Positions 39,927 to 54,800 are shown, numbered from the stretch's first letter. The stretch: 64,000 nucleotides of DNA from Clostridia bacterium (GCA_045648505.1 JAZROD010000032.1:722-64721); one strand, 5' to 3'. Numbers and translations are program-made. Notes: generated from the letters alone by a model not told the origin.

Positions 39927-40090
39927 AAAACATATCTCGCCTTCATAAATATTACTACTTATAATTTACTATAAAGAATATAGTTTGTAAAGAAAAAAAT
40001 AAAAAAATAAAAAAAGACTTGCTTTTTTGAAAGTTTTGTAGTAATATTAATTGGTTGCAAAAAAATATAAATAATTTATGAGGTGTAAAA

Positions 40091-41326
40091 ATGGAAGGAT
40101 TCTTATATTTTGTAAGTGTAGTAATCCAGGTAGCAATGCTTATAATTGGCGGCTACTATACAGTAATTTCATTAGTTGGCTGTTTATTCAGAAAAGAACC
40201 TAAAGCAACAAACACAACAAATAAAACACATAAATTCGCACTTGTTGTTTCTGCTCACAATGAAGAAGTGGTAATTGGCAACTTGGTTGATTCTATGAAA
40301 AATATAAATTACCCTGAAGAAAGCTATGGCATCTTCGTAATTGCAGATAACTGCACAGATAATACTGCAGAAATCGCAAGACAGCACGGAGCACAGGTTT
40401 TCGAAAGATTCAATACAGAACTCAGAGGCAAGGGTCACGCTCTTGACTGGATGTTTGAAAAAATTTATGAAATGGACTATGATGCAATCTCTGTATTTGA
40501 TGCAGATAACATCGTTCATCCTGACTTCTTAAACCAGATGAACAAACAGTTCAATAAAGGATTTAAGGCTGTTCAGGGCTACATTGATACAAAGAATCCA
40601 TACGATTCTTGGATTTCACTTTCTTACGCAATTTCATTCTGGAGCATCAACAGAGTGTTCCAGTATGCAAGATACACACTCGGTATGTGCTGTCAGCTTT
40701 GCGGAACAGGCTTTGCAGTATCAACTGATGTTTTAAGAAAAATCGGTTGGGGAGCAACTTGTCTTGCAGAAGATATGGAATTCACAATGAAGCTTACTTT
40801 AAACGATATTAAAGTAGGCTGGGCACACGATGCCATTGTTTATGACGAAAAACCTCTTACACTTTCACAGTCATACAAACAGAGAGTAAGATGGATGCAG
40901 GGTCATGCAGATGTTTTCACAAGATTCTTTGTAAAGCTTATGAAAAAAGGCATTAAAGAAGGAAAAATTATTCCTGTTGATTGCGCTTGTTATCTTTTCC
41001 AGCCAATCAGACTTATCGCCCTTTTCTATATCACATTTATGAGTATTACACACACATTCTTCCCTGGAACTTTCTTCACATTTGGTGATGTAGTACCAAC
41101 ATTTATCTGGAACACAATTACAATTTGTCAGCTTTTATTTGTGCCTTGCACGCTTTTCTTTGAAGGCAGACTTAACTGGAAAGTAATTAAAGGTTATATC
41201 CCATATTACTTCTACACATTCACATGGTTCCCTATTGCGGTTGTTGGTGCATTTAAGAAGAATAACAAAGAATGGTTCCACACTCAGCATACAAGAACAA
41301 TTTCTCTTGCAGAAATTGAAAAATAA
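40091..41326 (+). CDS. Membrane-embedded processive family-2 glycosyltransferase (cellulose synthase/PgaC-like)
   Basis: N-terminal TM segment, VVSAHNEEVVI, DADN, QRVRWMQG (QxxRW) motif, C-terminal TM bundle. Confidence 0.8.
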   Translation: MEGFLYFVSVVIQVAMLIIGGYYTVISLVGCLFRKEPKATNTTNKTHKFALVVSAHNEEVVIGNLVDSMKNINYPEESYGIFVIADNCTDNTAEIARQHGAQVFERFNTELRGKGHALDWMFEKIYEMDYDAISVFDADNIVHPDFLNQMNKQFNKGFKAVQGYIDTKNPYDSWISLSYAISFWSINRVFQYARYTLGMCCQLCGTGFAVSTDVLRKIGWGATCLAEDMEFTMKLTLNDIKVGWAHDAIVYDEKPLTLSQSYKQRVRWMQGHADVFTRFFVKLMKKGIKEGKIIPVDCACYLFQPIRLIALFYITFMSITHTFFPGTFFTFGDVVPTFIWNTITICQLLFVPCTLFFEGRLNWKVIKGYIPYYFYTFTWFPIAVVGAFKKNNKEWFHTQHTRTISLAEIEK

Positions 41327-41337
41327 AGGAAGATTAT

Positions 41338-41610
41338 ATGAGTAAAAGAGTAAATGATGAAAATGTCTTAATCCTTCAGGACGAGGACGGCTCAGAAATC
41401 AAATTTGAAATAGTGGGCATCATAGAAGACGGCGAAGATAGTTATGCTGTTTTATATCCCCTTACAAAAGGTATAAATGAGTATGTAATCGTGAAATACC
41501 TCGGGGCAGATGAATATGAAGAAGAAATGTTTGAGATTGTCTATGAACTTGATATAATCGAAAAAATCTTCGAAACATATAAGAAAAATCACCCTGAAAT
41601 ATTCAAATAG
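41338..41610 (+). CDS. DUF1292-family small acidic protein
   Basis: DEDGSEIKFEIVGIIEDGEDSYAVLYPL pattern, 90 aa. Confidence 0.7.
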   Translation: MSKRVNDENVLILQDEDGSEIKFEIVGIIEDGEDSYAVLYPLTKGINEYVIVKYLGADEYEEEMFEIVYELDIIEKIFETYKKNHPEIFK

Positions 41611-41624
41611 GAAATGTTAAAATA

Positions 41625-41737
41625 CTCCAGACCGCAAAAAGGCAGTGAAAAATATTATAAATAATTTTAAACAGAACGAAGAAAAACCTCACATCGTGAG
41701 GTTTTTCTTTGATATAGAGCCTTTTTGCGGTCTGGAG
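41625..41737. repeat. 18-bp perfect inverted repeat enclosing an inner terminator hairpin
   Basis: CTCCAGACCGCAAAAAGG (41625-41642) pairs with CCTTTTTGCGGTCTGGAG (41720-41737). Confidence 0.8.
41682..41710 (+). terminator. Rho-independent terminator (GT2-DUF1292 operon)
   Basis: AAAAACCTCAC-ATC-GTGAGGTTTTT followed by CTTT. Confidence 0.8.
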
Positions 41738-41763
41738 CATTTTTCCTATTCCCTTGTAACGAA

Positions 41764-41808
41764 AGGCTGTTTAAAAACGAGGTTTTAAACAGCCTCTTTT
41801 ATTTTTCT
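41764..41808 (+). terminator. Second tandem terminator hairpin
   Basis: AGGCTGTTTAAAA/TTTTAAACAGCCT stem followed by CTTTTATTTTT. Confidence 0.6.
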
Positions 41809-41836
41809 TGCAAATACTTTTATGCTGTGTTATAAT
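41808..41836 (+). promoter_or_regulatory. Orphan near-consensus sigma-A promoter in a convergent spacer
   Basis: TTGCAA, 17 nt, extended -10 TGTTATAAT. No annotated gene lies downstream. Confidence 0.55.
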
Positions 41837-41842
41837 AACTTT

Positions 41843-41990
41843 GCTACACAAATGAATATTTTCATCTTAAAAGAGCAAATACTTTGGTAAAAGGTGTTTA
41901 CTCTGTTTAATCAGCTCTTTTAGGATGATTTATTTGTGTAGCAACAAAAGAGAAACACTTTTTCGGTGCGTCTCTTGGGGCGCACTTTTT
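41843..41990 (+). ncRNA. Candidate ~150-nt structured small RNA or cis-regulatory leader (no family recognised)
   Basis: It starts just after the orphan promoter. A long interrupted hairpin pairs 41841-41876 with 41914-41944 (stems of 13, 4 and 9 bp). An intrinsic terminator, GTGCGTCT-CTTG-GGGCGCAC plus TTTTT, lies at 41966-41990. Confidence 0.3.
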
Positions 41991-42006
41991 AATTGGAGAA
42001 AAATCT

Positions 42007-42171
42007 ATGAAATTAAACAGAAAAAAATATAAACCTCTTACCAAACCTACCCCAAAAATAAAAAAACAATACAGAGTGCATTTAATAATGACAGAAATGT
42101 GGCAAGAGGAGGTTGAAAAATATCCGTACCTGAAAGAATTAGACATAGGATATAACTTTTTTATACTATAA
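42007..42171 (+). CDS. Hypothetical 54-aa small ORF (speculative)
   Basis: Own translation: MKLNRKKYKPLTKPTPKIKKQYRVHLIMTEMWQEEVEKYPYLKELDIGYNFFIL. GGAG lies 7 nt upstream and a hairpin at 42178-42204 lies downstream. The ORF is A-rich, so it could be a chance ORF. Confidence 0.15.
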   Translation: MKLNRKKYKPLTKPTPKIKKQYRVHLIMTEMWQEEVEKYPYLKELDIGYNFFIL

Positions 42172-42201
42172 ATTAATAAGACTTTGCAATGTGGCAAAGT
42201 C

Positions 42202-43017
42202 TTATTTTGAAAGTATTGCATTTTTAAATATACTTAAGTCAGGCTCGGCGTTTTTTTCTTTTGTAAGGGAGTATTCCATTCCCACACTTTCGTATTTTGC
42301 ACCTGCCATCTGATTGTATGACAAAAGCTCAACTTGTGAAGAACCTACTATTTCTGATATTCCTCTTAAATTTTCTTCGGTATCTGTAATATCAGGAATT
42401 AAGGGAACTCTTATGATATAGGGAATACCACTGCTTTTTAAAAACTCAAAGTTCTTTAAAATAACATCGTTATAAACACCTGTAAATTCTTTGTGCTTTT
42501 CCCTGTCTGCTATTTTAATATCCATCATAACATAGTCAAAGCATTTTATTGTGCTTTGAAAAACATCTTCATCAGCATATCCGCTTGTCTGAATTGCTTT
42601 ATGGATGCCATCAAGCTTTGAACATACCTCTTTAACGAATTTGTGTTGAAGAAGAGGCTCACCGCCAGAAAATGTAACACCGCCATTGTTAAGCTCAAAA
42701 AAGTCTTTGTAAGACATAATCTTTTCAGCAAGCTCATCTGCTTCGTATTCAAGTCCGCAGATTCTTACAAGGTTTTTGGGGCATATTTTTATGCATCTTC
42801 CAAAAGGCTTGCACTCAATATGGTCGCAAGGCTTTCGGCACAAACCGCAGTTTGTGCATTGGGCAGTTTTAACAAGCAGTTGCTTTTCTCCTTTAAGACC
42901 TTCAGGGTTATGACACCATCTGCATCTTAAAGGACAACCCTTTAAAAACACCGTAACTCTGCCGCCGGGTCCGTCGTGGAGGGAAAATTCTTTTATATCA
43001 AAGATTGTTCCTGTCAT
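42202..43017 (-). CDS. Glycyl-radical enzyme activating protein (radical SAM with auxiliary ferredoxin-like clusters)
   Basis: The MTGTIFDIKEFSLHDGPGGR opening, CPLRCRWCHNPE (CX3CX2C), CTNCGLCRKPC and CIKICP. ATG 43017 lies 1 nt after the GH1 stop. Confidence 0.9.
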   Translation of the reverse strand: MTGTIFDIKEFSLHDGPGGRVTVFLKGCPLRCRWCHNPEGLKGEKQLLVKTAQCTNCGLCRKPCDHIECKPFGRCIKICPKNLVRICGLEYEADELAEKIMSYKDFFELNNGGVTFSGGEPLLQHKFVKEVCSKLDGIHKAIQTSGYADEDVFQSTIKCFDYVMMDIKIADREKHKEFTGVYNDVILKNFEFLKSSGIPYIIRVPLIPDITDTEENLRGISEIVGSSQVELLSYNQMAGAKYESVGMEYSLTKEKNAEPDLSIFKNAILSK

Positions 43018-43018
43018 A

Positions 43019-44272
43019 TCAATATTCCTTACCAAGACTTGGAAGCTTATCAAGATATTTTCTTAAGATTTCTTGAGTCATTCCTTTGTTTTCAATTATT
43101 TCTTTATAGAAATACGCACTCGTTTTAGGAGTTCTTTCAAATGTTTCAAAGTTACAGTCACAGAGACCGAATCGTGGTAAGTAGCTTCCCCATTCGTAAT
43201 TATCAAGCAAACTCCAATGGAGATAACCCTTAACATCTGCACCTGTGCGGATTGCTTCAGACAATGCGGATAAATGAAGTGCAAGATAAACTATTCTTTG
43301 TCTATCATCGTTGCAACAAACACCGTTTTCAGTTATAACAATAGGTTTATCCGTTAATCTGCTCAAGTTTGCGATCATAATTTCAGGATGCATTTCTTCC
43401 AGATAAAAGTCCTTGTTTATCAAACGGATTTTTTTATGTTCGTATCTTCCGCCCATAGGATTTACTTTTCTTGAATCTATCATTTCTCTTGTGTAACAGT
43501 TAATTGACCAGTAATCAACAGTGCCTTTTACATCAGGGTCGTATATGCCGTCCTCAAATGGCTGCAGAATTTCTCCTGTTCTCATTGAATGGAAGAAAAA
43601 TTCATGATACTTGAAATCAAGTTGCTGAGTCATTATATTATCCAGTTTATCGTATGGACGATATGGCATAAAATGAACAAGGGCATGAGCACTGCTTACA
43701 GGTGCATCTGAATACTTTTTAATTATGTGGTAACCAAGCGCATGGAATCTTATGTAATTTTTGCGGAAACCATAGTAATTGAATTCATTGCAAACATTCC
43801 AGTAATCAACATAAGGTGCAAGCTTTGGGGTTATGTATTCAACATATTTTTCAAAATATTTTCTGTTGTCAAGATTGTCAAAATGGCCTATTTTGTCAAA
43901 CCATAAAGGCCAGGTGAAATGAACGAGGGTAGCACAGGTTTTAAGACCTTTTTCTTTTGCGTATCTGAAAAGGTCAATGTAGTGTTCGGTTGCCTCTTTG
44001 TTGAAAATCCCGCACTCAGGTTCAACTCTGCACCATTCAATAGATGTACGGAATGCCTGATGCCCAAGAGATGCCGCAAGGTCAATATCCTGACGATAAA
44101 GCTCATAGCTGTTGCAGGCTTTTCCCGATAAATGTTCAAATTTACCTTCCATCTCTTCACGCCATATATTATTGTTTGTATTATTTCCTTCTACCTGATG
44201 TCCTGCGTATCCGCTACCAAAAAAGAAATCGGAAGGGAAGGAAAAGTCCTTCATAGAAAAAATGTCATACAT
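43019..44272 (-). CDS. Glycoside hydrolase family 1 (beta-glucosidase / 6-phospho-beta-glycosidase-like), leaderless
   Basis: FFFGSGYAGHQVEGNN, acid/base CNEFN, nucleophile VITENGV, WSLLDNYEW. Confidence 0.85.
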   Translation of the reverse strand: MYDIFSMKDFSFPSDFFFGSGYAGHQVEGNNTNNNIWREEMEGKFEHLSGKACNSYELYRQDIDLAASLGHQAFRTSIEWCRVEPECGIFNKEATEHYIDLFRYAKEKGLKTCATLVHFTWPLWFDKIGHFDNLDNRKYFEKYVEYITPKLAPYVDYWNVCNEFNYYGFRKNYIRFHALGYHIIKKYSDAPVSSAHALVHFMPYRPYDKLDNIMTQQLDFKYHEFFFHSMRTGEILQPFEDGIYDPDVKGTVDYWSINCYTREMIDSRKVNPMGGRYEHKKIRLINKDFYLEEMHPEIMIANLSRLTDKPIVITENGVCCNDDRQRIVYLALHLSALSEAIRTGADVKGYLHWSLLDNYEWGSYLPRFGLCDCNFETFERTPKTSAYFYKEIIENKGMTQEILRKYLDKLPSLGKEY

Positions 44273-44290
44273 TAGAACAATCTCCTTTAA

Positions 44291-46276
44291 TTATAATGTG
44301 TATTCCTGTCTTCTCATAACATGGTCCTGATATTCCTTGTCAAGCTCAACAAAGTATGCACTCCATCCCCAGATTCTGACAACAAGCTGCTGATATTTTT
44401 CAGGGTGTGCCTGAGCATCCTTTAATGTTTCAAGGTTAACTGCGTTAAGCTGAAGCTGATGTCCGCCAAGTTCAACAAAGGATTTAACAAGCATAGCAAC
44501 TTTTTCAACACTGCTTTCATCTTTAAACATAGAATTATGGAATTCAAGTGTTAAAGGACCGCCGTTTATAACATTTTCAAAGTGTGGCTTTGAGAATGAT
44601 TTAATAACTGAAAGTGGACCTTTGATATCTGCAAAAATACTTGCAGAGAAGTTTGTACCAAAAGGCTCTTTCTTAAGTCTGCCGTCAGGTGATGCACCGA
44701 TTTCGTTTGCGTGCCAAAGGTAAAACATAGCAGAGCCTGTTCCTGCACGATATATTCCGCCTCTGCAGTTCTTTCTGCCCTTTAAAGCTTCGCCAAAGGT
44801 ATCTAAAAGCCATACTGCAATATCATCAACAAGGTCAATATTGTTACCCATTTTGGGTGCTTCATAGCGAAGTTTGTGAAGAAGCTCGGGAGCGTTTTCA
44901 AAGTTTGTATCAACTGCATTTATAAGCTCTTCTTTTGAAATGCTTTTTTCTTCAAACACATATTTTTTGATTACTGCAAGTGAGTCTGCACCTGTTGCAA
45001 CACCTGTTCCGTGAATACCGAAGTTATTGTATTTTCCACCACCCCAGATAGTGTCATTATTGCACATAACTGACATAAAAGGAGATGGAACAAACCATAA
45101 GTCCTTTAAATTACCGCAGATAATATCACATTCTGCTTTTATTTCTTTTTCAACTTCTTTTGCAAAGTCATCAAATGTTTCTGATGTTAAAAGGTGCTTA
45201 TGAAGAGCGTTGTCTACAACTTTAGGGAAGTTAAGCGCACCGATGTTTGCCACATCTGCGCCAACTTTAGGAACAATAAATTCCCAGCAAGCGGCAGTAA
45301 CATATTCACAGGCATCTTCTTTATCGTAGCCAAGTTTAACAAGGGCATCAATAACCACATCATCGTTTGAATACTGTGGGAAACCAAGACCTGCTTTTGT
45401 AAGCTCACTACCTAAAATGTATGTCTCAACAGGTGTGTTTTTATTAACTCTTAAATTGATTTTAGGGTCAATTAAAAGAAGATTATTACTTGCTTTAAGA
45501 CAAAGCTTTGAAAGAAGATTAAAAACATCGTTTCCGTCTTTATCAACACCGCCAAGCATTAAGCTTTGTCCGTTGTCACCCTGCTGAACGCCCACGTAAA
45601 GGTCTGAATCTTTGTTGAATGATAAGAAAAAGTCTTCAACAAGCGCTAAAGCTGTCTCTTCTGTGTAAAGTCCTTTTTCCATATCTGCTTTAAGGTATGG
45701 ATACATATATTTGTCAAGTCTGCCAACTGTGTTGTGGTAGTTTCCTTCAAGCCAGAGGGCAAAATGAACAATTCTGAAAGACTGAAGTGCTTCAATAAAG
45801 CTTGTTGCACCATAAGCAGGAACTCGCTCTAAAACTTTTGCAATTTCTTCTTTACCCTCTTTGATTGCTGCTTCTTTATATCTTTCAACAAGACCTAAAA
45901 TAGCATCAATGCTTCTTTTCTGATACTCATTTGCAGTTTCTCTTTTTGCAAGAAGACCACATTTGATAATATCTTCATAGTCAGGAGAAAGGTTTGAAAG
46001 ATAACCAAGCTCGTGAATGAAATATTTGTCTTTAAGTTCTGCCCACTCATCTTCTGTGAAGCAGTCAGGAATGTTTTTAACTGTTCTTACGAAGCAAATT
46101 TTTTCATCAGGAAGAAAATGTGGTGTTTCCATTTGGCAAAGTCTTTCAAATCTGTCTGTCATTCGCTCAATAGGGGAAAGCCCCTTTTCTTTATACTCTT
46201 TTGCAAGTTCAGGAGCTTCAATTCTGAACTTGTGATGTTCTTTTTTAAGTATGTAATCAAGTAACGCTTTTGACAT
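44291..46276 (-). CDS. Compact glycyl radical enzyme (PFL-like superfamily), 661 aa, substrate unknown
   Basis: C-terminal Gly-radical motif VVRIWGWSAYF (Gly637). Thiyl loop TAACWEF (Cys330, Glu332). PKMGNNIDLVDD and SPDGR motifs are typical of GREs. Confidence 0.85.
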   Translation of the reverse strand: MSKALLDYILKKEHHKFRIEAPELAKEYKEKGLSPIERMTDRFERLCQMETPHFLPDEKICFVRTVKNIPDCFTEDEWAELKDKYFIHELGYLSNLSPDYEDIIKCGLLAKRETANEYQKRSIDAILGLVERYKEAAIKEGKEEIAKVLERVPAYGATSFIEALQSFRIVHFALWLEGNYHNTVGRLDKYMYPYLKADMEKGLYTEETALALVEDFFLSFNKDSDLYVGVQQGDNGQSLMLGGVDKDGNDVFNLLSKLCLKASNNLLLIDPKINLRVNKNTPVETYILGSELTKAGLGFPQYSNDDVVIDALVKLGYDKEDACEYVTAACWEFIVPKVGADVANIGALNFPKVVDNALHKHLLTSETFDDFAKEVEKEIKAECDIICGNLKDLWFVPSPFMSVMCNNDTIWGGGKYNNFGIHGTGVATGADSLAVIKKYVFEEKSISKEELINAVDTNFENAPELLHKLRYEAPKMGNNIDLVDDIAVWLLDTFGEALKGRKNCRGGIYRAGTGSAMFYLWHANEIGASPDGRLKKEPFGTNFSASIFADIKGPLSVIKSFSKPHFENVINGGPLTLEFHNSMFKDESSVEKVAMLVKSFVELGGHQLQLNAVNLETLKDAQAHPEKYQQLVVRIWGWSAYFVELDKEYQDHVMRRQEYTL

Positions 46277-46290
46277 ATTACCACTCCTTA

Positions 46291-46304
46291 CATTATCGTT
46301 AATG
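46291..46304. promoter_or_regulatory. Candidate LacI-family operator (14-bp CG-centred palindrome)
   Basis: CATTATC-GTTAATG on the plus strand; half-sites match 6 of 7. It lies immediately downstream of the -10 box of the GRE promoter. Confidence 0.5.
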
Positions 46305-46306
46305 CA

Positions 46307-46335
46307 ATTATACCAAATAAAAACCGCTCAGTCAA
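46307..46335 (-). promoter_or_regulatory. Near-consensus sigma-A promoter of the GRE operon
   Basis: Minus strand TTGACT, 17 nt, TATAAT. Confidence 0.7.
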
Positions 46336-46347
46336 TAGACTGAACGG
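46313..46347 (-). terminator. Rho-independent terminator overlapping the lacI-family stop codon
   Basis: The minus strand reads CCGTTCAGTC-TATT-GACTGAGCGG followed by TTTTTATTT. Confidence 0.6.
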
Positions 46348-47329
46348 TTTTTCTCTCAATTATTTTTGTTTCAAGGATTTTTTTTACTGTTCCTGAAGAA
46401 TTTTCTTCAAGGTTGTCTATTAAGATGTTAACAGCTTCTTTTGCCATAGTTGATTTTTTTGAAGAAAGGGAAGTAAGCTCTAAAGGAAACTTGAATCTTG
46501 ACAGAATATCGTCAAAGCCGATAACCGAAACATCTTCAGGGACTTTTTTGCCAAGCTCCTTTAAAATTGATATTGCCTGCATTGCAAAAAGGTCTGAAAA
46601 ACAGATAAGTGCAGTATAATTTTTCCTTGAAGACAGAATTTTTTTCATTTTATCATAGTTGTCAGAAGGAGCAAGTTCAAAGACATTGCTAAAAGCTTTT
46701 CCTTTTTCTTCAAATGCTCTTTTTACACCTGAAAGTCTTTCTTCTGCACTTGAGATGCAAAGGGGTGCATTTAAAAACAGAATATCTTTATGTCCTTTTT
46801 CTAAAAGATATTTACCTGCAATATATCCGCTGTTTTCGTCGTTGCAGATAACATAGTTGTTGTCTTTGCCTTTAAACCTTCTGCCGAGAAGTACAAAAGG
46901 AATATCAAGGCTTTCAAGAAAGGCTATGTTATCGTATGAATTTTGTGTGGGCGATATAATAATACCGTCTGTATTTTTGCTTTTTGCTGAGATTATTGCC
47001 TGCTTTTCTGTTTCAGGGTCTTCGTCTGTGTTCATTATGTATGCAGTATATCCTTTTTCCCTTAAAAGACCCTCGATTTCTTTTATTACAACAGAAAAAT
47101 GGGGATTTGTAATGTCTGCAACAATAATTGCTATGCTTTTGCTCTTTCCACTTCTTAAAAATATTGCGGATGAGTTTGCAATATATCCCATTTCCTCAGC
47201 AGTTCTTTTAATAAGCTTTTTGGTTTTCTCTGAAATGTCAGGTTTGTCATTAAGTGCGTGAGAAACTGTGTTTGCTGAAAAACCTGTAGCTTTTGCTATA
47301 TCAGAAAGAGTAACAGTTTTATTTTTCAT
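46328..47329 (-). CDS. LacI-family transcriptional regulator
   Basis: N-terminal [47 protein letters not shown] plus a periplasmic-binding-protein-like core. Confidence 0.9.
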
Positions 47330-48329
47330 TAAAATCTATAGGCAGGTAAGGAATTGCGTTTAAGTCCATACCTGAAAAATCCTTTCGCATATAATAATGA
47401 TATGCCGCCGCACCGATCATTGCCGCATTATCTGTGCAATAAACAAAGTCAGGGCAAACAAATTCCATACCACGCTTTTCGGCCTCGCATTTAAAGCTTT
47501 CACGAAGTCCTGAGTTTGCGGCAACACCGCCTGCAATAGAAACCTTTTTAACGCCTTTCATTTCAGCCGCTTTAAAAGTGTTTGTTGTTAAAATATCAAC
47601 AACGGTACTCTGGAAGCTTGCGCAAAGGTCATTTACATTTATTTCTTCACCTTTCTGCGCCATATTGTGGTGATAGTTTATAATTGCAGTTTTAATTCCG
47701 CTGAAAGAAAAATCAAGGGTTTCTTCATGGAATTTAGGCTTTGTTATAGGAATGTTAGGAGTTCCAAGCTTTGCCGCTTTGTCAATACTTGGTCCGCCTG
47801 GGTAGGAAAGTCCCACAACACGGGCAACCTTATCGTAAGCTTCGCCTGCGGCATCATCTCTTGTTTTTCCTAAAACTTCATATTTTCTGTAATCTTCAAC
47901 ATAAATAATATGGCTGTGACCACCTGATGCCACAAGGCACATAAATGGTGGTGTAAGTCCCATAAGATAGTTGGCACAAATATGACCTTCAATATGGTGA
48001 ACCCCAATCAATGGCTTGCCTGATGCAAATGCATAAGCCTTTGCATAAGAAAGACCAACAAGGAGTGAGCCAACAAGCCCCGGTGCATAAGTAACCGCAA
48101 TTGCATCAATATCGTCAATGGTGCAGTTTGCATCATCAAGTGCCTGTTTAACAACACCATCTATTGCTTCTATATGAAGACGGGATGCAACTTCAGGCAC
48201 AACACCGCCGTATTTTTTATGTAAGTTTGCCTGCGAATTTATAACATTTGATAAAACTGTGCGTCCGTCTGCTACAACAGATGCGGCAGTTTCATCGCAG
48301 GAACTTTCAATAGCAAGTATTTTAATCAA
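47319..48329 (-). CDS. tsaD: tRNA N6-adenosine threonylcarbamoyltransferase TsaD
   Basis: [19 protein letters not shown] opening, HHIEGH motif, 336 aa. Confidence 0.95.
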
Positions 48330-48771
48330 TTAGTTCTATCTCCTTTGTCATAAGGATTGCATTTTCGTTATTTTTGTAATAGTTTTTTCTGAAACCATCC
48401 TGGACAAATCCCATTTTTTTATAAAGGTTAATTGCACTTTCGTTGCTTTCACGAACTTCAAGATGCAAAAGTGATGTACTGGTCTGTGCACACTTTTCAA
48501 TCATTTTTTCTAATATTTTTGTTGCAATTCCCATTTTTCTGTAGTCTTTATGAGTGGCAATATTGATGATTTCTGCTTCAAACATAACCCACCAGTAACC
48601 GCCGTAGCCAACAACTTTATCGTCAATTGTTGCAACAAAATAGCTTGCAACAGGGTTTTCAAGTTCTTTTTTGAATTCTTCAACAGATGACCATGGCTTG
48701 TGAGGACAGGTGTTGTCTATTTCTTCAATAAAGGGGAGATGCTCCGCTTTTAAATATTCTATGGTAATCAT
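48322..48771 (-). CDS. rimI: Ribosomal-protein-alanine N-acetyltransferase RimI (GNAT)
   Basis: GNAT core [20 protein letters not shown]. Canonical position upstream of tsaD. Confidence 0.85.
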
Positions 48772-49775
48772 AATTTTATTATCCTGCCTCCTGCCGCCTT
48801 GAACATTCTGTTATAAAGGGCAAAGCCAACGCCTTTTTTATCGGGCATAAGAGCGAAAATCTTTGTTATGCCATTGTCATCACACTCACGGAGTAAATCA
48901 AAAAACAGTTTACTGCCCAAGCTTGAATCGCCTAATGATTTCACATAAGGCAAATCAAAATCTATTTTGTCATAAGTGAAAACTGCAGTATTTTCATCTG
49001 CATTTTCGGTTATATAGCGTCTGATTTCGTCAATGCTTCCGTCTAAAATATAAAGCTCGCCATTTGGTGCATAGTGCTTGTATTTCATACCAGGACTTTT
49101 AGGCTTAACCGTATCTGTAATCACATCAAGGGTTAAGTGCTTGTCATAAGAAACATCAGGGAAAAGCTCATAAATATCTTCAAAAGTAACTCCGCCCGGT
49201 CTTAAAATAACAGGCGACAATTCTGTTACATCAATAACTGTTGACTCAAGACCTATATCACAGCTTCCGCCGTCTATAATCATATCAATTTTCCCGTTTA
49301 AGTCTTCATAAACATGGCTTGCCTTTGTGGGACTTGGCTTTCCTGATGTGTTTGCACTTGGTGCGGCAACAGGTGTTTTTGCAAGAGCAATAAGCTCTCT
49401 TGCAATTTCGTTTTCGGGAAGTCTGATGGCAACTGTATCAAGACCACCTGAAATAACCGATGGCACAATATCACGCTTTTTGAAAACCAGCGTCATAGGT
49501 CCTGGCCAGAAAGTGTCCATAAGCTTTTGTGCAGTTTTATTGATTTCAAGCACAAGGGGAAGAACTTCTTTTTTATCCTGAATATGTAAAATAAGAGGAT
49601 TGTCCGAAGGTCTGCCTTTGGCAACATAGATTTTTTTTACTGCTTTTTCGTTAAGTCCGTCTGCACCAAGTCCGTAAACTGTTTCTGTAGGGAATGCAAC
49701 AAGACCGCCATTGTTTAAAATTTTGGCGGCTTGGGTTAAATTTTCTGTTGTTGGTTTAACAAGAGATGTCATCAA
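48768..49775 (-). CDS. tsaC: L-threonylcarbamoyladenylate synthase (Sua5/YwlC/TsaC type with Sua5 C-domain)
   Basis: LVAFPTETVYGLGADGLN, KGRPSDNPLILH, APSANTSGKPSPT. Confidence 0.9.
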   Translation of the reverse strand: MMTSLVKPTTENLTQAAKILNNGGLVAFPTETVYGLGADGLNEKAVKKIYVAKGRPSDNPLILHIQDKKEVLPLVLEINKTAQKLMDTFWPGPMTLVFKKRDIVPSVISGGLDTVAIRLPENEIARELIALAKTPVAAPSANTSGKPSPTKASHVYEDLNGKIDMIIDGGSCDIGLESTVIDVTELSPVILRPGGVTFEDIYELFPDVSYDKHLTLDVITDTVKPKSPGMKYKHYAPNGELYILDGSIDEIRRYITENADENTAVFTYDKIDFDLPYVKSLGDSSLGSKLFFDLLRECDDNGITKIFALMPDKKGVGFALYNRMFKAAGGRIIKL

Positions 49776-50257
49776 TAATCTTCCTTTATACCGAGGGAAT
49801 CGTCATTTTCAATCCACTCTGATACCATATAGTGTCTGTAATTTTCTTTATCATCTCTGATGTAAACATCATTGATGCCTGCATTTATTATCATTCTTTT
49901 GCACATAGAACAAGGCATTGCGTTTTCAACAACTGCACCTGTGCTTTTTTCTTTACCGCAAAGGTAAAGAGTTGCGCCAATCATTTCGTTTCTTGATGCA
50001 GAGATAATAGCATTTGCTTCAGCGTGAACACTTCTGCAAAGTTCGTATCTTGTGCCTCTTGGAACATTTAATTTTTCTCTTAAACAAAAGCCCATATCAG
50101 AGCAATTCTGTCTTTGTCTTGGTGCACCAACATAACCTGTTGAAACGATTTCATCGTTTTTAACAATAATTGCGCCAAAATTTCTTCTGAGGCAAGTGCC
50201 TCTTTCAAGTACTGTTTCTGCGATGTCGAGGTAATAGTTTATTTTATCTGTTCTCAA
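49772..50257 (-). CDS. dCMP deaminase (ComEB-like cytidine/deoxycytidylate deaminase)
   Basis: HAEANAI and PCSMCKRMIINAGI zinc motifs. TTG start at 50257 behind AAGGAGGA; the longer ORF would overlap rpiB. Confidence 0.85.
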   Translation of the reverse strand: MRTDKINYYLDIAETVLERGTCLRRNFGAIIVKNDEIVSTGYVGAPRQRQNCSDMGFCLREKLNVPRGTRYELCRSVHAEANAIISASRNEMIGATLYLCGKEKSTGAVVENAMPCSMCKRMIINAGINDVYIRDDKENYRHYMVSEWIENDDSLGIKEDY

Positions 50258-50270
50258 AACCGTATCCTCC

Positions 50271-50708
50271 TTAATTATTTTCAATATCTGTAATAAGGTC
50301 AATTCTTGCCTGATGGCGTCCGCCTTCAAACTCTGCATTCATATATGCATCAAGAATTGAAATGGCAAGGTCTTCTCCAAGAACTCTGCCACCCATACAG
50401 ATAACATTTGCATTGTTATGCTGTTTGGTTTTTTCTGCACTGTATGCATCAGAACAAAGTGCAGCACGGATTCCTTTGTGTTTGTTTGCGGCAATTGAAA
50501 TACCGATACCTGTTCCGCAGATTAAAATACCGAATTCTGCTTCACCGCTTGTAACTGCAGGACAAACTGCAGATGCAATGTCAGGGTAATTTACGCTGTC
50601 TTTTGAGTAACAACCGAAGTCTTTAACTTCAATTCCTTTTCCTTCAAGGTGTTTGATGATGGCAAGTTTAAGTTCATAACCGCCGTGATCTGATCCGATA
50701 GCTATCAT
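50271..50708 (-). CDS. rpiB: Ribose-5-phosphate isomerase B
   Basis: MIAIGSDHGGYELK opening, CGTGIGISIAANK. ATG 50708 behind an AGGAAAGGAA RBS. Confidence 0.9.
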   Translation of the reverse strand: MIAIGSDHGGYELKLAIIKHLEGKGIEVKDFGCYSKDSVNYPDIASAVCPAVTSGEAEFGILICGTGIGISIAANKHKGIRAALCSDAYSAEKTKQHNNANVICMGGRVLGEDLAISILDAYMNAEFEGGRHQARIDLITDIENN

Positions 50709-50712
50709 AATA

Positions 50713-51387
50713 TTATTCCTTTCCTTCCTGTTGGTCCACATAAGCTTTAACTAAATAATCGGGAGCAATAGGTTTGTTTTGTTTATTTAAGTATAATTTT
50801 TCTGCAAGGTATGCAACCGAAGCCGCATCTGAAGTATTATATATTTCTGCAGGGAAAACTGCGTTTTCTTTAAGAGTCTCTTTAATAAGCTCTTTGTGTT
50901 TTTCGATGCAGTCGCCTGTAAAAATTATTTTCTTGTCAAAGCAGGAAAGCTTTGATAAAAGAATGTTAATGTCGCACATATCTGCAGGGAGGATTTCTTC
51001 ACCGTTTTTATAAAGTGAATAATAAACCTGATTTCTTCTTGCATCTAAAAGTGGACAAACATAGCCGTCAAAGTAATTGAATTTAAAAGCCATAGCCTCA
51101 AGAGTGGAAACACCAACTGCCGGCTTTCCTGCACCGTCTGCAAGACCTTTGATTGTTGCAATTCCAACACGAAGTCCTGTGAAAGAACCGGGACCTTGTG
51201 CAGCTGCAAAAAGGTCAATATCCTTTGCACAAAGATTAAGTTTGTTTAAAAGTTCTTCAATAAGCACCATACTTATCTGTGAATGTGGAGTTGCAAGATT
51301 TAAGGTGAAAACACCTAAGAGGTTACCATCCTGTGTTACCGCAACTGTTGCTGCTTTTGAAGATGTGTCTGTTGCAAGAGTTCTCAT
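50713..51387 (-). CDS. tsaB: tRNA threonylcarbamoyladenosine biosynthesis protein TsaB
   Basis: MRTLATDTSSKAATVAV, GPGSFTGLRVGIATIKG. Confidence 0.9.
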   Translation of the reverse strand: MRTLATDTSSKAATVAVTQDGNLLGVFTLNLATPHSQISMVLIEELLNKLNLCAKDIDLFAAAQGPGSFTGLRVGIATIKGLADGAGKPAVGVSTLEAMAFKFNYFDGYVCPLLDARRNQVYYSLYKNGEEILPADMCDINILLSKLSCFDKKIIFTGDCIEKHKELIKETLKENAVFPAEIYNTSDAASVAYLAEKLYLNKQNKPIAPDYLVKAYVDQQEGKE

Positions 51388-51797
51388 TTTTTAACCTCGC
51401 TTATTTCAATAATTCTTCCGCCTTTGTTATATGTAATATTAACTGCCTTATATTCTTCAAGAAGTGGATATGCAATTTCAGGCCACTCAATAATACAGAT
51501 GCCGCCCGAGAAAAGATAACTGTCTATATCTATGGAATACAAGTCATCAACCGTCTTTAAACGGTATAAATCAAAGTGATAAACGGATGTTTTGCCGGGA
51601 TATTCGTTTACGATGTTAAATGTAGGACTGACAGGCTCGTAAATACACTCAAGAGCCTTTGCAATACCTTTTGTGAAGGTTGTTTTTCCTGCACCTAAAT
51701 CGCCTGTTAAACAGACAATATCACCGCTTTTTAATGTTTTGCCGAATTCTTCACCAATGAGTATGGTTTCTTCGGCATTTAATGCATTATAAATCAT
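51384..51797 (-). CDS. tsaE: tRNA threonylcarbamoyladenosine biosynthesis ATPase TsaE
   Basis: Walker A GDLGAGKTTFTKG, HFDLYRL. ATG 51797 behind GAGAGG; the ORF track starts at an upstream TTG, 51809. Confidence 0.9.
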   Translation of the reverse strand: MIYNALNAEETILIGEEFGKTLKSGDIVCLTGDLGAGKTTFTKGIAKALECIYEPVSPTFNIVNEYPGKTSVYHFDLYRLKTVDDLYSIDIDSYLFSGGICIIEWPEIAYPLLEEYKAVNITYNKGGRIIEISEVKK

Positions 51798-51825
51798 AAA
51801 ACCTCTCAAATTTCAATGATAGTTT

Positions 51826-51854: not shown

Positions 51855-54800
51855 CTAAAACATTGTTTCAATAAGCACAGGGAAGAAGCCTTCTGTCAAG
51901 TACCACATTGTTGATGTATCAAGGTTCTGGTAGAACTGTGGATTACCAAGCTGGTAGTTGCTTCCGCCTGTTGCACCTTCAAGAGCAAATGGGTCATTAA
52001 CTGTGTTTAAATAATAACAGTTGTATATGTTTTCTTTAAGAAGTGTGGCACATATTGCACCTGTGTTTTTACCTGTAAGTTTTTCGGCAGAAGAAATACA
52101 GTTTACAATACTTCCGTTATTGCCTGAAGCTATGCCTCCGATATTGCTTTCTGCAGAAAGTGAATTTAAAACAGAAATGTCACAGTAGTTGATGCAATCT
52201 GAAATTGTACCGCTGTTATAACCACAGATACCGCCAAGCAGAGCAGAGGTTACAACAGAAAAATTAATCTGCATACCGTTGTATGAACCTGCAATAAGAC
52301 CATAGTTGTAACCGCACACACCACCTGCAACTGCAGAATGTGAATTACCCCCAAGTAATCCGTTGGTGTATGAAGAAACTATCATACCGCTGTGCTTGTT
52401 TATTCCTGCAATTCCTCCGCTTACGGAAGTGTAAGCAGTAAAAGGTGCAAAAGATGTGTTACTGCATCTGTAAATGAGTCCTGTGTTAACAGATGCAATA
52501 CCGCCTGATGTATCGGCAGAAAGAGAAACATTTTCAAGCTTTAAGTTGTAGATTTCGCCATGGTTTTCTCTGAACATTCCCGATGTTGTAGTTAAATTTG
52601 AAATTGTATGTCCGTTTCCAAGGAAAGTGCCGAAGAAACTGAAAATTTCATCACCTACAGGAAGGAAAAATTCACCTGACATATCAATATCTGCAAGAAG
52701 AGTAAAGGAAGAACCAAGATGTTTTCGCACATTGTTTAAATGCTCTTTTGTAATTATTTTATATGGGTTTTCAAGGCTTCCGTTTCCGCCTGCAAAATCT
52801 CGTATGTTTTCAATATCAAGAATAGTTGTGTGAGGATTTGTTTTCAGCTGAGGGAATGGGTATGTTGAATTTTTGATTTCCCAGAGCTTTTCACTTAATC
52901 CTGATGCAACGGTAGTTGTTGCCAATTCTTCAGGAGAAACAGAGAACACACCGTTTAATTTGATACATTGTTCACCTGCACCTGAAGGGAGAGTGTGGTC
53001 AAAATAACAAGTTGAAAGCTTACCTGAAACACCACCGCCTGCAATAGAGCCCACATACTGCAAAGGACTTGTTGCGGTAATATAGCCTAAATTATAACAG
53101 TTTGAAATAATTGCATCAGAGCAATAGCCTGTTATTCCGCCACTATATGACCTTTCCGGAGCCTTAACGGTAATAGAGCCTGTGTTGTAGCAGTTGGAAG
53201 TTTCCTGATATTCGCTTCCGGTAATTCCGCCTGCAATAGCGGTTTTTCTGTCAGAATAGGAGAAAATTTTACCGTTATTTACACATTTTGCAATGGCAGA
53301 GTGGTTTGATGCACAGATACCGCCGGCTACTGCACTGCTTTCGGTACAGTTTGCAATAATACCGCCGTTGTTGGTGCAATCTGCCACATAATTGTAATTA
53401 TAAACACAAATTCCGCCTGCAAGGGTTGAAGCGAAGATATCTGAAAGATTAAGACATTTTAAAATCTGTCCTCTTTCTTCATTGGTGCAGGCAATAGCAG
53501 AAGCTATACCGTCTTTTGCACCAACTCTAGAGCCTCTTAAGGTTATATTTTCGATTTTTCCTTCGTTTGAAATTGAAATTGCAGATGCTTTTGAAAGACC
53601 TTCTATTCGTGATTCTGCAATTGTAAGATTTTTGATATTACCTTTGTTTTTTATAACGAAACTGCCGTCGCCTATGCCTGAATATAAAATATTCAGAGCG
53701 TAAATTGTGGATGAATTTCCATCCAGTACACCTGAAAAACTGTCTATTGGTGTGAAACCAAGATTTGCATTGTTGTAAATGGACGGAGAGTTGTATTCAG
53801 CAGAAAGGTCTATATCTCTTGTGAGCACAAAGTGTTTGGAAGAATACATTCTTATGTCAAATAATTCTTTCATAGAGGTTATTTTGTAAGGAGCATCCAT
53901 ACTTCCGTCACCCTCTGCATAGCCTGACGGGAATATAACATCGCTAAAATCAACGCTTTCAAAAATGGGATAACCCATTTTTGTTGCAGTATATATGTTG
54001 TCTTTGAAAAGCTTTTTATTGAAGCTTTCGTATGAAATACCGCCCGGTTGAGAGCTTTGGTATCTGTTGAGATAATATGCGTCTTTGTACTGACCGTCAG
54101 AAATGGGGTATATAACACCAATACTGCTTTCAAAGAACATATCGCCTGTGTTGTAGCCTCTTAAAATACCGCCATTTGAAGCAATACCGAAAATTAAGCT
54201 TTTTTCGCCTGTTCCCATTAAATCTGCAGCATTTATACAGTCGATTATACTGCCACTATTGGCAAGTGCGAAAGGTGCGAGCTTGTTGCCTGAAAGCTTT
54301 CCGTTGTTAAGGCACTGAATAATACTGCCGTTGTTTTCTTCCGAAAAGGCAAAAACGGTTTCGCCCTGTATGGAAGAGTTGTTTTTACAAGCAATAATTG
54401 TTCCGTTGTTTGTTTTTGTAAACGCCTGTGATTTTTTTAATTCAAGATTCTGAACAGTTCCGTTGTTGGTTAAAATAAGAATGCTTTTAAGACCTGATAT
54501 TTTCTTTGAATTACCGTCTAAATTTCCGTTGAATTCTTTAATTGATTTAAAATCCGTCAAAGACATATCAATGTCATTTTTCAAAACAAAGCTGGCAAAA
54601 GGGAAGTACCTTATGTTGTTTAAATGCATAGGTGTGATGATAACATAAGGGTTTGAAGCAGTACCGTCACCGCCTGCAAAAGAGTATGTATTTTCTTTTG
54701 TGTTTTGCAGGAAAGACGGATTGTTTTTTATTGTTAAAGATGTTTTGCCTGAAACCCATATATCTGCATTAAAGAAAGGAATAACATTAAGATTGTCTTT

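Follow-up and report, generated by a model that had tools for sequence, protein, structure and literature searches.

Glycyl radical enzymes (GREs) are oxygen-sensitive and catalyse demanding anaerobic reactions; in the gut, they are behind the production of trimethylamine, hydrogen sulfide and p-cresol, as well as the use of hydroxyproline and anhydro-sugars. This text deals with a compact GRE of 661 residues, encoded in a 64,000-nucleotide stretch of DNA from a Clostridia bacterium (GCA_045648505.1 JAZROD010000032.1:722-64721), which is called the window throughout. Its gene lies on the minus strand together with those of a LacI-family repressor, a glycoside hydrolase of family 1 (GH1) and a GRE-activating radical SAM enzyme, or activase (Table 1). 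These four genes, their coordinates, the motifs TAACWEF and VVRIWGWSAYF, and the codons of Cys330, Glu332 and Gly637 were listed in an initial annotation, and all of them were confirmed by open reading frame (ORF) calls, Pfam and a codon check. The GRE and its activase are the conserved two-gene core of a large compact clade of PFL2-type GREs, found mainly in gut and rumen Clostridia. The GRE would carry out a radical C-O cleavage of a carbohydrate-derived small molecule, a reading to which a probability of about 0.6 is given.

A June 2026 review of GREs (PMC13450708) counts six C-O eliminases, CutC, three C-S lyases and three isomerases, and whole clades stand there without validation. The Cys-x-Glu motif is found in every eliminase of the C-O, C-N and C-S types, and the isomerases that open rings (YbiW, PflD and HplG) have it too (PMC13450708). 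The compact clade is absent from this review, in which no enzyme of such size or with a link to a glycosidase is found. Literature searches, likewise, returned no paper on it.

The nearest described systems are the C-O eliminases of the glycerol dehydratase (GDH) type. Like GDH (Clostridium butyricum DhaB1, 1R8W), propanediol dehydratase (PD, 5I2A) and HypD (6VXC), the window GRE has, in its model, a ten-stranded barrel and a C-terminal glycyl radical domain, with a template modelling (TM) score of 0.84-0.87 (query-normalised). The catalytic Cys and the Glu of the Cys-x-Glu motif align with those of the GDH-type enzymes, and a dedicated radical SAM activase is encoded alongside. The window GRE is, however, about 125-180 residues shorter, carries C-W-E and W-G-W where these eliminases carry C-V-E and A-G-Y, and is only 21-26% identical to the solved eliminases and isomerases in Foldseek alignments.

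A second point of comparison is provided by YbiW and PflD, the 1,5-anhydroglucitol/-mannitol-6-phosphate C-O lyases (8ID7, 8ID0, 8YJO), which share the Cys-x-Glu motif and are among the best matches in both sequence and structure. They act on carbohydrates, and a carbohydrate substrate for the compact clade would be a further likeness. In E. coli, the GRE genes stand beside aldolase genes, as the pairs ybiW-fsaA and pflD-fsaB; a fructose-6-phosphate aldolase (FSA) gene is also found beside the GRE in a few relatives. The window and most of the relatives lack aldolase, kinase and phosphotransferase system genes, and the window GRE is compact and without the general-acid His. Where transport is encoded near compact-clade members, it is of the ATP-binding cassette (ABC) or major facilitator superfamily (MFS) type, which suggests unphosphorylated substrates.

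CutC (5FAU) resembles the window GRE in its fold score and in that the His column holds another residue, which in CutC is Asp216 and is suited to its leaving group. The clade, on the other hand, has Asn and not Asp at this column; no microcompartment genes were seen nearby in the surveyed loci, and the score with the CutC model is 233 bits against a cut-off of 1050.

The compact clade of glycyl radical enzymes

Two Pfam domains are recognised in the window GRE, the PFL-like PF02901 (E 1.5e-82) and Gly_radical PF01228 (E 4.6e-21). In the Cys loop, TAACWEF, Cys330 is encoded at 45287-45289 and Glu332 at 45281-45283. The Gly loop, VVRIWGWSAYF, contains Gly637 (codon 44366-44368), whose counterpart in the alignments with GDH and PflD is their radical Gly. 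The flanks of this Gly are atypical, as W-G-W stands in place of the usual [ASC]-G-Y (the general GRE pattern being R-V-x-G-[YFW]), and they are kept across the clade.

It had been estimated that the enzyme is roughly 100-200 residues shorter than characterised GREs. The estimate is right, for the solved GREs that match it have 765-1150 residues. The best 120 homologues of the window GRE measure 623-669 residues, all but two of them 654-669. In an exhaustive search of 1.84 billion cluster representatives, end-to-end matches of 650-710 residues reached down to about 36% identity; below this level stood canonical GREs of 720-800 residues, aligned only from about residue 115-140 onwards. By profile alignment, about 65 of the missing residues fall before the first active-site motif and about 35 just after it, while the rest come from loops.

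The AlphaFold model, built on a 22-sequence alignment, presents a complete GRE fold with a predicted local distance difference test (pLDDT) score of 91.2 and a predicted TM score (pTM) of 0.90. The length kept in the relatives and this complete, confident model together rule out truncation or a pseudogene as the origin of the short GRE. Against the solved eliminases and isomerases, the Foldseek TM scores are 0.81-0.88 when query-normalised, PflD (8id0) being the highest at 0.88, and 0.64-0.75 when target-normalised. The lower target-normalised values indicate that the model corresponds to only part of the canonical fold. TM scores with decarboxylase and X-succinate synthase structures are 0.75-0.81.

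The window GRE scores below the cut-off of every NCBIfam model. The best match is TIGR01774, with 313 against 678 bits, followed by HypD (295 against 1100), HpfG (264 against 1000), NF007437 (263 against 1109), CutC as given above, and the pyruvate formate-lyase (PFL) model TIGR01255 (74 against 994). Membership of a characterised GRE family is thus ruled out, all these scores being far below their cut-offs. PFL proper is ruled out as well, because the loop reads A-C-W-E, without Cys-Cys, and because of the low score. For the same two reasons, the name 'pyruvate formate-lyase', the only one which the homologues bear at their source, is a generic label. Profile scores against solved GREs are 439 bits for GDH, 428 (8yjo) and 401 (8id0) for PflD, 421 for CutC, 405 for PD, 364 for HypD and 342 for YbiW. 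Since the profile and Foldseek scores are nearly flat across the eliminases and isomerases, no nearest functional relative is singled out.

A signature of the clade was sought in 112 full-length representatives, including 25 from the compact clade and 52 canonical ones; 63 were longer than 715 residues. Asn95, Asp234, Gln237, Cys330-Trp331-Glu332, Arg510, Gly512, Gly514, Asn571-Gly-Gly573 and Trp636-Gly637-Trp638-Ser639 are invariant or nearly so in alignment A2. The residues separating the clade from the canonical enzymes are Asn95, Asp234-Asn235, Cys-Trp-Glu, Arg510, Gly514, Glu578 and Trp-Gly-Trp. The Gly loop RVWGWS occurs in all 25 clade representatives, none of which exceeds 715 residues, and in none of the 63 longer ones. 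The column of GDH His164 holds Asn in 23 of the 25 but His in 48 of the 52 canonical representatives. Asp234-Asn235 is present in the clade, whereas 35-40 of the 52 canonical sequences, depending on the column, have a gap there. Position 578 is Glu in 24/25 as against Lys in 30/52. Cys330 is kept in 24 of the 25, Cys-Trp-Glu in at least 90% of the clade, and the AACWEF Cys loop is found together with the WGW Gly loop in 21/25.

A neighbouring set of GREs, of about 660-745 residues, combines C-W-E with W-G-F. Across the representatives (P0121-P0270), the flanks of the radical Gly change together with the residue at the centre of the Cys loop, C-W-E going with W-G-[WF] and C-V-E with A-G-Y, and this suggests that the Cys loop and the Gly loop may pack against each other at the site of radical transfer. 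Two full-length compact GREs of alignment A2, P0138 (AAGSCF, VCVRDWRAL) and P0159 (VSSRGEP, VRLWSSGVPF), have neither the catalytic Cys nor the Glu nor the radical Gly. They may be non-catalytic GRE-like paralogues.

In a collection with one genome per species, 274 matching stretches were found, nearly all of them in metagenome-assembled genomes of gut and rumen Clostridia belonging to the Acutalibacteraceae, Oscillospiraceae and Lachnospiraceae. One cultured strain is among them, Ructibacterium gallinarum DSM 107454. The window GRE is almost certainly a member of an uncharacterised compact clade. This agrees with the earlier proposal of an uncharacterised GRE subfamily, which is borne out by the sub-threshold NCBIfam scores and by the absence of the clade from the review.

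Neighbouring genes and the GRE/activase junction

The surroundings of the GRE were surveyed by calling and clustering the ORFs of 83 related, species-level loci (numbered with an L), the clusters being annotated with Pfam and NCBIfam. Only the GRE and the activase are constant over these loci, and many consist of just the pair. In 80 of the 83, the activase gene comes next after that of the GRE. The window activase has the Pfam domains Radical_SAM and Fer4_12 and passes TIGR02494 with 259 bits against a cut-off of 174, so that the assignment of an activase of its own to this GRE holds well. Residues 28-35 form a CX3CX2C motif, and a single complete CX2CX2CX3C motif spans residues 54-64.

The other neighbours vary. 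An AraC-type regulator is present in 24 of the 83 loci. A 644-residue GH36 protein resembling 'raffinose synthase', whose closest solved relative is the Arabidopsis protein 7exf, is present in 23 loci, where it is often adjacent to the pair and lies on the same strand in 22 of 23 copies. Melibiase-type GH36 proteins occur in 8 loci, bringing the GH36-like enzymes together to 31. DUF4867 (12 loci), LacI (10) and a Cof-type HAD phosphatase (6) also recur, as do sugar ABC transporters and esterases of the GDSL, SASA, CE4 and beta-lactamase types. Further glycosidase families, more than a dozen with those elsewhere in the survey, are represented by single or few instances, among them GH2, 3, 4, 28, 31, 51, 65, 78, 88, 94, 127 and a trehalase/GH63-like family.

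Possible downstream enzymes are rarer. A short-chain dehydrogenase/reductase (SDR) and an aldo-keto reductase follow directly after the activase in L020 and L036, and an SDR is also present in L063. A cluster of class-II ketose-bisphosphate aldolases is represented in 4 of the 83 loci. L001 has a bona fide FSA, a ROK kinase, a SIS protein and an L-fucose isomerase beside the GRE and activase. FSA is found in 2/83 loci (L001 and, as an FSA-like cluster, L035), and the ROK kinase was seen in L001 only. Among more distant members, the GRE of L092 (51% identical) is followed by genes for a sugar MFS transporter and for an aldose 1-epimerase. In L094 (119-6432), with a compact GRE of 46% identity, an Fe-alcohol dehydrogenase (Fe-ADH) gene lies upstream, NagB-like and NagA-like genes lie downstream, and a SASA esterase gene lies further downstream, which hints at an amino-sugar context for this subclade. 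The divergent members L093 and L095 are on short contigs, where the activase is the only neighbour visible. DUF4867 has been described as a cupin metalloprotein and proposed to be a ketose ring isomerase or mutarotase, its function being left open (PMC11968277); as a neighbour it supports a sugar context only. On the whole, a carbohydrate connection is supported family-wide, and with it the earlier idea of a sugar-derived substrate.

The GH1 gene of the window encodes a short beta-glycosidase (PF00232, E 1.2e-56) with the acid/base Glu163 in an NEF motif (43784-43786) and the nucleophile Glu315 in ITENG (43328-43330). It scores 201 against 478.5 bits with the beta-glucosidase model TIGR03356, and at most 145 bits with the 6-phospho models, whose cut-offs are about 560-690. 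Its N-Y-E-W motif presumably points to the non-phospho type. The closest solved structure, the Pyrococcus horikoshii beta-glycosidase BGPh (1VFF; E 8e-63), is likewise of about 420 residues and has both catalytic Glu residues, although the match is distant.

No GH1 homologue was found by tblastn in any of the 83 related loci, with up to 10 kb of flank searched in each. The three closest of them, L004, L005 and L006 (GRE 93-96% identical), are collinear with the window over 40001-49000, except that 43019-44292 is missing. In these three, the GRE stop overlaps the activase start in the sequence TTATGA; in the window, the TAA is followed by an 18-nucleotide spacer with AAAGGAGA, the GH1 gene, its TGA, a single T and then the same activase start. 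The GH1 gene, therefore, is excluded as a conserved partner of the GRE by its absence from all 83 loci and by this precise synteny break. Almost certainly, it is a lineage-specific insertion of a single-gene cassette exactly at the GRE/activase junction.

The order GRE-GH1-activase is also present in two contigs from other metagenome samples, L084 and L085, with identities to the window of 95-96% for the GRE (of which short stretches are present), 86% for GH1 and 89-96% for the activase. An assembly artefact or chimera is ruled out by these two. That the GH1 association is unique to this genome, which the initial annotation had named as counting against its reading, is nearly the case, the arrangement being seen besides only in these two closely related contigs. 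Over the last 663 nucleotides of the GRE gene, L084, which has GH1, is 94.6% identical to L004, which has not, while the window is 91.0% identical to either of them. Since L084 is closer to L004 than to the window, the presence of GH1 is polymorphic inside one narrow lineage, and this could reflect precise loss or the transfer of alleles by recombination.

The composition of the cassette is not foreign (GC content 0.369, against 0.376 for the GRE gene). No flanking repeats were found beyond a 3-nucleotide TAT and a weak GGAATA microhomology, and no mobile-element genes were found. In about 10 loci (L034, L035, L049, L051, L063, L068, L070, L073, L075 and L082), other genes are found between GRE and activase: in some a GDSL esterase, in others DUF4867, in others again an SDR accompanied by a second gene. 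The junction is, therefore, a recurrent insertion slot. GH1 itself belongs to a populous family of proteins of 410-438 residues. In L086, an 87%-identical copy stands alone, preceded by a TATAAT box and followed by an AraC-like gene, and in L087 a member of the family follows the gene of a 739-residue FAD oxidoreductase. In L090 (8001-9263) and L091, a 65%-identical GH1 separates the two permease genes of a sugar ABC transporter, GH88 and PL8-lyase genes being present in the locus as well; here, for the second time, a short GH1 is wedged into a normally contiguous gene pair.

Two explanations of the GH1 gene have to be weighed against its reading as one of several interchangeable feeders. The initial annotation coupled GH1 and GRE in a dedicated two-step pathway, in which the cytoplasmic GH1 cuts a beta-glycoside and the sugar or aglycone so released is the specific substrate of the GRE. 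The GH1 gene is placed between GRE and activase, appears to be co-transcribed with them and is provided with a ribosome-binding site of its own; at neither junction of the cassette was a terminator-like hairpin detected. The catalytic Glu163 and Glu315 are intact, the arrangement persists in the two further assemblies, where GH1 has diverged to 86% identity, which suggests maintenance, and the slot holds other plausible feeder enzymes in other lineages. Nevertheless, GH1 is lacking in all the species-level relatives, including those nearest to the window, its presence is polymorphic, and its family turns up in the unrelated settings of L086, L087 and L090. The GRE, therefore, works without GH1 nearly everywhere, and the dedicated pathway is unlikely.

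Alternatively, GH1 might be an unrelated passenger in a permissive, well-expressed junction, with no metabolic tie to the GRE. Such behaviour is consistent with the copies wedged between ABC permease genes, with presence and absence varying inside one lineage, and with the stand-alone copy behind its TATAAT box. It is, however, doubtful in view of the other genes of the slot, which are all carbohydrate-related and argue for functional selection, and of the three GRE-linked GH1 copies, in each of which the reading frame and the catalytic residues are intact. The best reading of GH1 is that of a feeder or accessory enzyme for which several others can stand in, and it therefore gives no pointer to the substrate.

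Possible chemistry and substrate

Pocket residues were assigned from sequence alignment alone. In the alignment with GDH, His164 is replaced by Asn95, Asp447 by Asn344, Tyr640 by Gly514 and Gln636 by Arg510. The general-acid His of the C-O eliminases, by which the departing hydroxyl is protonated, is, by this alignment, an Asn in the window GRE. It had been reasoned that the Cys-x-Glu loop marks a dehydratase. The loop is indeed present, but this reading is too narrow, as isomerases carry the motif too and the general-acid His is Asn. Eliminase or isomerase chemistry is plausible for the GRE, because Cys-x-Glu is common to all such enzymes.

In the proposed mechanism, the activase would install a radical on Gly637, which would be passed to Cys330. 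The thiyl radical on Cys330 would then abstract hydrogen from a hydroxyl-bearing (carbinol) carbon in the substrate, and Glu332 would deprotonate the hydroxyl at that carbon to give a ketyl radical. This radical would expel the neighbouring C-O leaving group, by elimination or ring opening, and the return of hydrogen from Cys330 would yield a carbonyl product. The same radical scheme is described for YbiW, PflD and the eliminases of the C-O, C-N and C-S types (PMC13450708). A product of carbonyl or ketose type would agree with the reductases and aldolases occasionally found next to the pair. Most likely, the substrate is neutral, about the size of a monosaccharide and carbohydrate-derived (a sugar, a deoxy- or anhydro-sugar, or a polyol), such as could be released by many glycosidases and esterases.

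Some points weigh against this reading. As the general-acid His is lost, the leaving-group step is not transferable from the known dehydratases, and the leaving-group chemistry may differ from that of the known C-O eliminases. Many loci, including the closest relatives, are just [LacI]-GRE-activase among housekeeping genes, with neither transporter nor downstream enzyme, and the carbohydrate link is thus statistical and defines no pathway. Furthermore, gut Clostridia are rich in glycosidases, and the neighbour counts carry no chance background. The adjacent glycosidases span many sugars, so that no single sugar explains the associations. The binding of the LacI protein to the operator proposed below is also read from conservation alone.

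Other assignments of the clade have been considered. It might be a ring-opening C-O lyase like YbiW and PflD, acting on unphosphorylated anhydro- or deoxy-sugars whose product is then phosphorylated and cleaved by an aldolase. PflD is among the top matches in profile and fold scores, and the FSA, ROK kinase and SIS protein of L001, the FSA-like cluster of L035 and the class-II aldolase cluster would supply the later steps. DUF4867, together with the aldose 1-epimerase and sugar transporter of L092, suggests that the ring form or anomer matters. Such aldolases, however, occur in only 2 (FSA) and 4 (class II) of the 83 loci, and none of the FSA, kinase and aldolase genes is found in the window or its closest relatives. 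YbiW and PflD also keep the His lost in the compact clade, and the NF007437 score is far from its cut-off. This assignment is, accordingly, held to be quite unlikely.

A compact glycerol or 1,2-diol dehydratase is the weakest of the proposals and very unlikely. Esterases and alpha-/beta-galactosidases would feed it by freeing its substrate, glycerol or another small diol, from plant galactolipids or glycosyl-glycerols. In its favour, the B12-independent glycerol dehydratase 1r8w is taken as the best match in sequence and structure, GDSL esterases, GH36-like, GH2 and GH1 enzymes recur as neighbours, and the Fe-ADH beside the pair in L094 recalls dhaT, which in Clostridium butyricum adjoins the genes of the dehydratase. 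Against it, the residues that bind glycerol are, by alignment, lost (His164, Asp447 and Tyr640 are replaced as above and Ser282 is variable), the surveyed loci have no microcompartment and most of them no Fe-ADH, the TIGR01774 score is far under its cut-off, and the small residues 513-514 with extra polar residues would suggest a larger, polyhydroxylated ligand.

Locus layout, probable LacI control and meaning of the clade

The features of the locus are collected in Table 1. The LacI gene start overlaps the stop of tsaD by 11 nucleotides. The GH1 stop (43019-43021) is separated from the activase ATG by one base, T. An alternative TTG start of the activase at 43053 would run into GH1, and the start position in the relatives argues against it. 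A near-consensus promoter before the GRE and a terminator-like hairpin at the end of the activase make GRE, GH1 and activase a credible transcription unit, beyond chance juxtaposition. The promoter elements TTGAC... and TATAAT are kept in L005, L006, L008, L011 and L014. At 44290-44317 (minus), the insertion junction has created a promoter-like ATGAGA-16-TATAAT just upstream of GH1, which could give GH1 and the activase some transcription independent of LacI.

Table 1. Genes, motifs and predicted signals of the locus, in window coordinates
Feature	Position	Strand	Basis or remark
LacI-family repressor gene, 333 residues	46328-47329	minus	ORF and Pfam
Hairpin with 15-nucleotide arms and T tail, terminator-like, at 3' end of LacI gene; holds -35 box of GRE promoter	46319-46352	minus	
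Promoter-like site TTGACT-17-TGgTATAAT upstream of GRE, 11/12 matches, extended -10	46335->46307	minus	
Predicted LacI operator GCATTAACGATAATGT, 16-bp near-palindrome with central CG, directly after -10 box	46290-46305	minus	Phylogenetic footprinting
Compact GRE gene, 661 residues	44291-46276	minus	ORF and Pfam
Asn95 codon, clade-specific substitute for general-acid His (GDH His164; same column as CutC Asp216)	45992-45994	minus	Profile alignment
Cys330-Trp331-Glu332, predicted thiyl-radical Cys and Cys-x-Glu base	45281-45289	minus	Aligned with GDH Cys433 and Glu435
Trp636-Gly637-Trp638, predicted glycyl radical site with Trp on both sides	44363-44371	minus	Pfam Gly_radical
1,274-nucleotide insertion relative to closest relatives: 18-nucleotide spacer with ribosome-binding site AAAGGAGA, and GH1 gene	43019-44292	minus	blastn synteny break, junction alignment
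Short GH1 beta-glycosidase gene, 417 residues	43019-44272	minus	ORF and Pfam PF00232
Activase gene, 271 residues from ATG	42202-43017	minus	ORF, TIGR02494
Terminator-like hairpin overlapping activase stop codon (42202-42204), reaching just past it	42206->42175	minus	

The LacI protein has the Pfam LacI helix-turn-helix (HTH) domain and Peripla_BP_1/3/4. It stays below all equivalog cut-offs of NCBIfam, the best being RbsR with 203 against 382 bits. It resembles the LacI/GalR sugar repressors with 16-bp CG-centred palindromic operators in the HTH and periplasmic-binding-protein fold and in an operator overlapping the promoter, but differs from them in that it matches no curated equivalog.

The predicted operator GCATTAACGATAATGT is matched once in the whole window. 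Each of the nine LacI-bearing loci examined has the 16-mer, as ACATTAACGATAATGT or closely varied; in these loci the flanks have diverged, the GREs are 66-95% identical and the LacI proteins are down to 49% identical. In eight of them it stands immediately behind the -10 box, and in L009 it lies 6 nucleotides downstream of the box. The Ructibacterium gallinarum copy, ACATTATCGATAATGT, is perfectly palindromic. L004, which has no LacI gene, does not contain the 16-mer, nor do 9 of 10 control loci in which no LacI gene is adjacent. The closest relative, L004 (9900-10016, set against window 46262-46372), lacks regulator and operator alike, and the two are therefore gained or lost together. In L030, an operator-like ACATTAACGGTAATGT is present with no LacI gene adjacent. 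A generic LacI operator pattern, TGNNANCGNTNNCA, was uninformative, with 27 matches against 20 expected and none at the GRE promoter. The LacI protein, judging from this conserved site, probably controls the GRE-activase promoter directly through GCATTAACGATAATGT. The earlier placement of the operon under a LacI regulator is strengthened by these findings.

Two further observations concern the upstream DNA. Directly upstream of LacI, an apparent tRNA t6A-modification run (TsaD-, RimI-, Sua5/TsaC-, TsaB- and TsaE-like genes; 47319-51809, minus) is interleaved with dCMP-deaminase-like and RpiB-like genes. These assignments were made from translations, TsaD alone having tool support, from a Pfam TsaD hit on the syntenic L004 gene. 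Beyond it, 51855-56759 (minus) encodes a protein of 1,634 residues. Judging from its translation, it seems to begin with a signal-like segment and to contain SLH-like repeats as well as dozens of short repeats rich in Gly, Asn and Cys.

The locus points to one well-delimited and populous clade among those GRE clades which are left unassigned in the review (PMC13450708). Of lasting worth are the compact clade with N95, C-W-E and W-G-W, its conserved LacI operator, which is new here, and its modular junction. The reduced architecture, the W-G-W flanks and the replacement of His by Asn make a new chemistry or substrate class plausible. Three handles are offered by the system, namely a minimal two-gene unit, a repressor-operator pair with which the inducer, and so probably the substrate, could be fished for, and a cultured host in Ructibacterium gallinarum DSM 107454. 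As GH1 is a lineage-specific insertion, a chase after its substrates or aglycones would probably mislead.

A bolder idea, and a rather unlikely one, is that the clade dehydrates or opens, by radical chemistry, the ring of a sugar or cyclitol that is free and unphosphorylated, acting on it directly, and that the junction would serve as a plug-in slot for whichever feeder (GH1, GDSL esterase, DUF4867 or SDR) suits the diet. If true, such a direct radical route for sugars or cyclitols would be a new oxygen-independent entry into carbohydrate catabolism, widespread in gut Clostridia.

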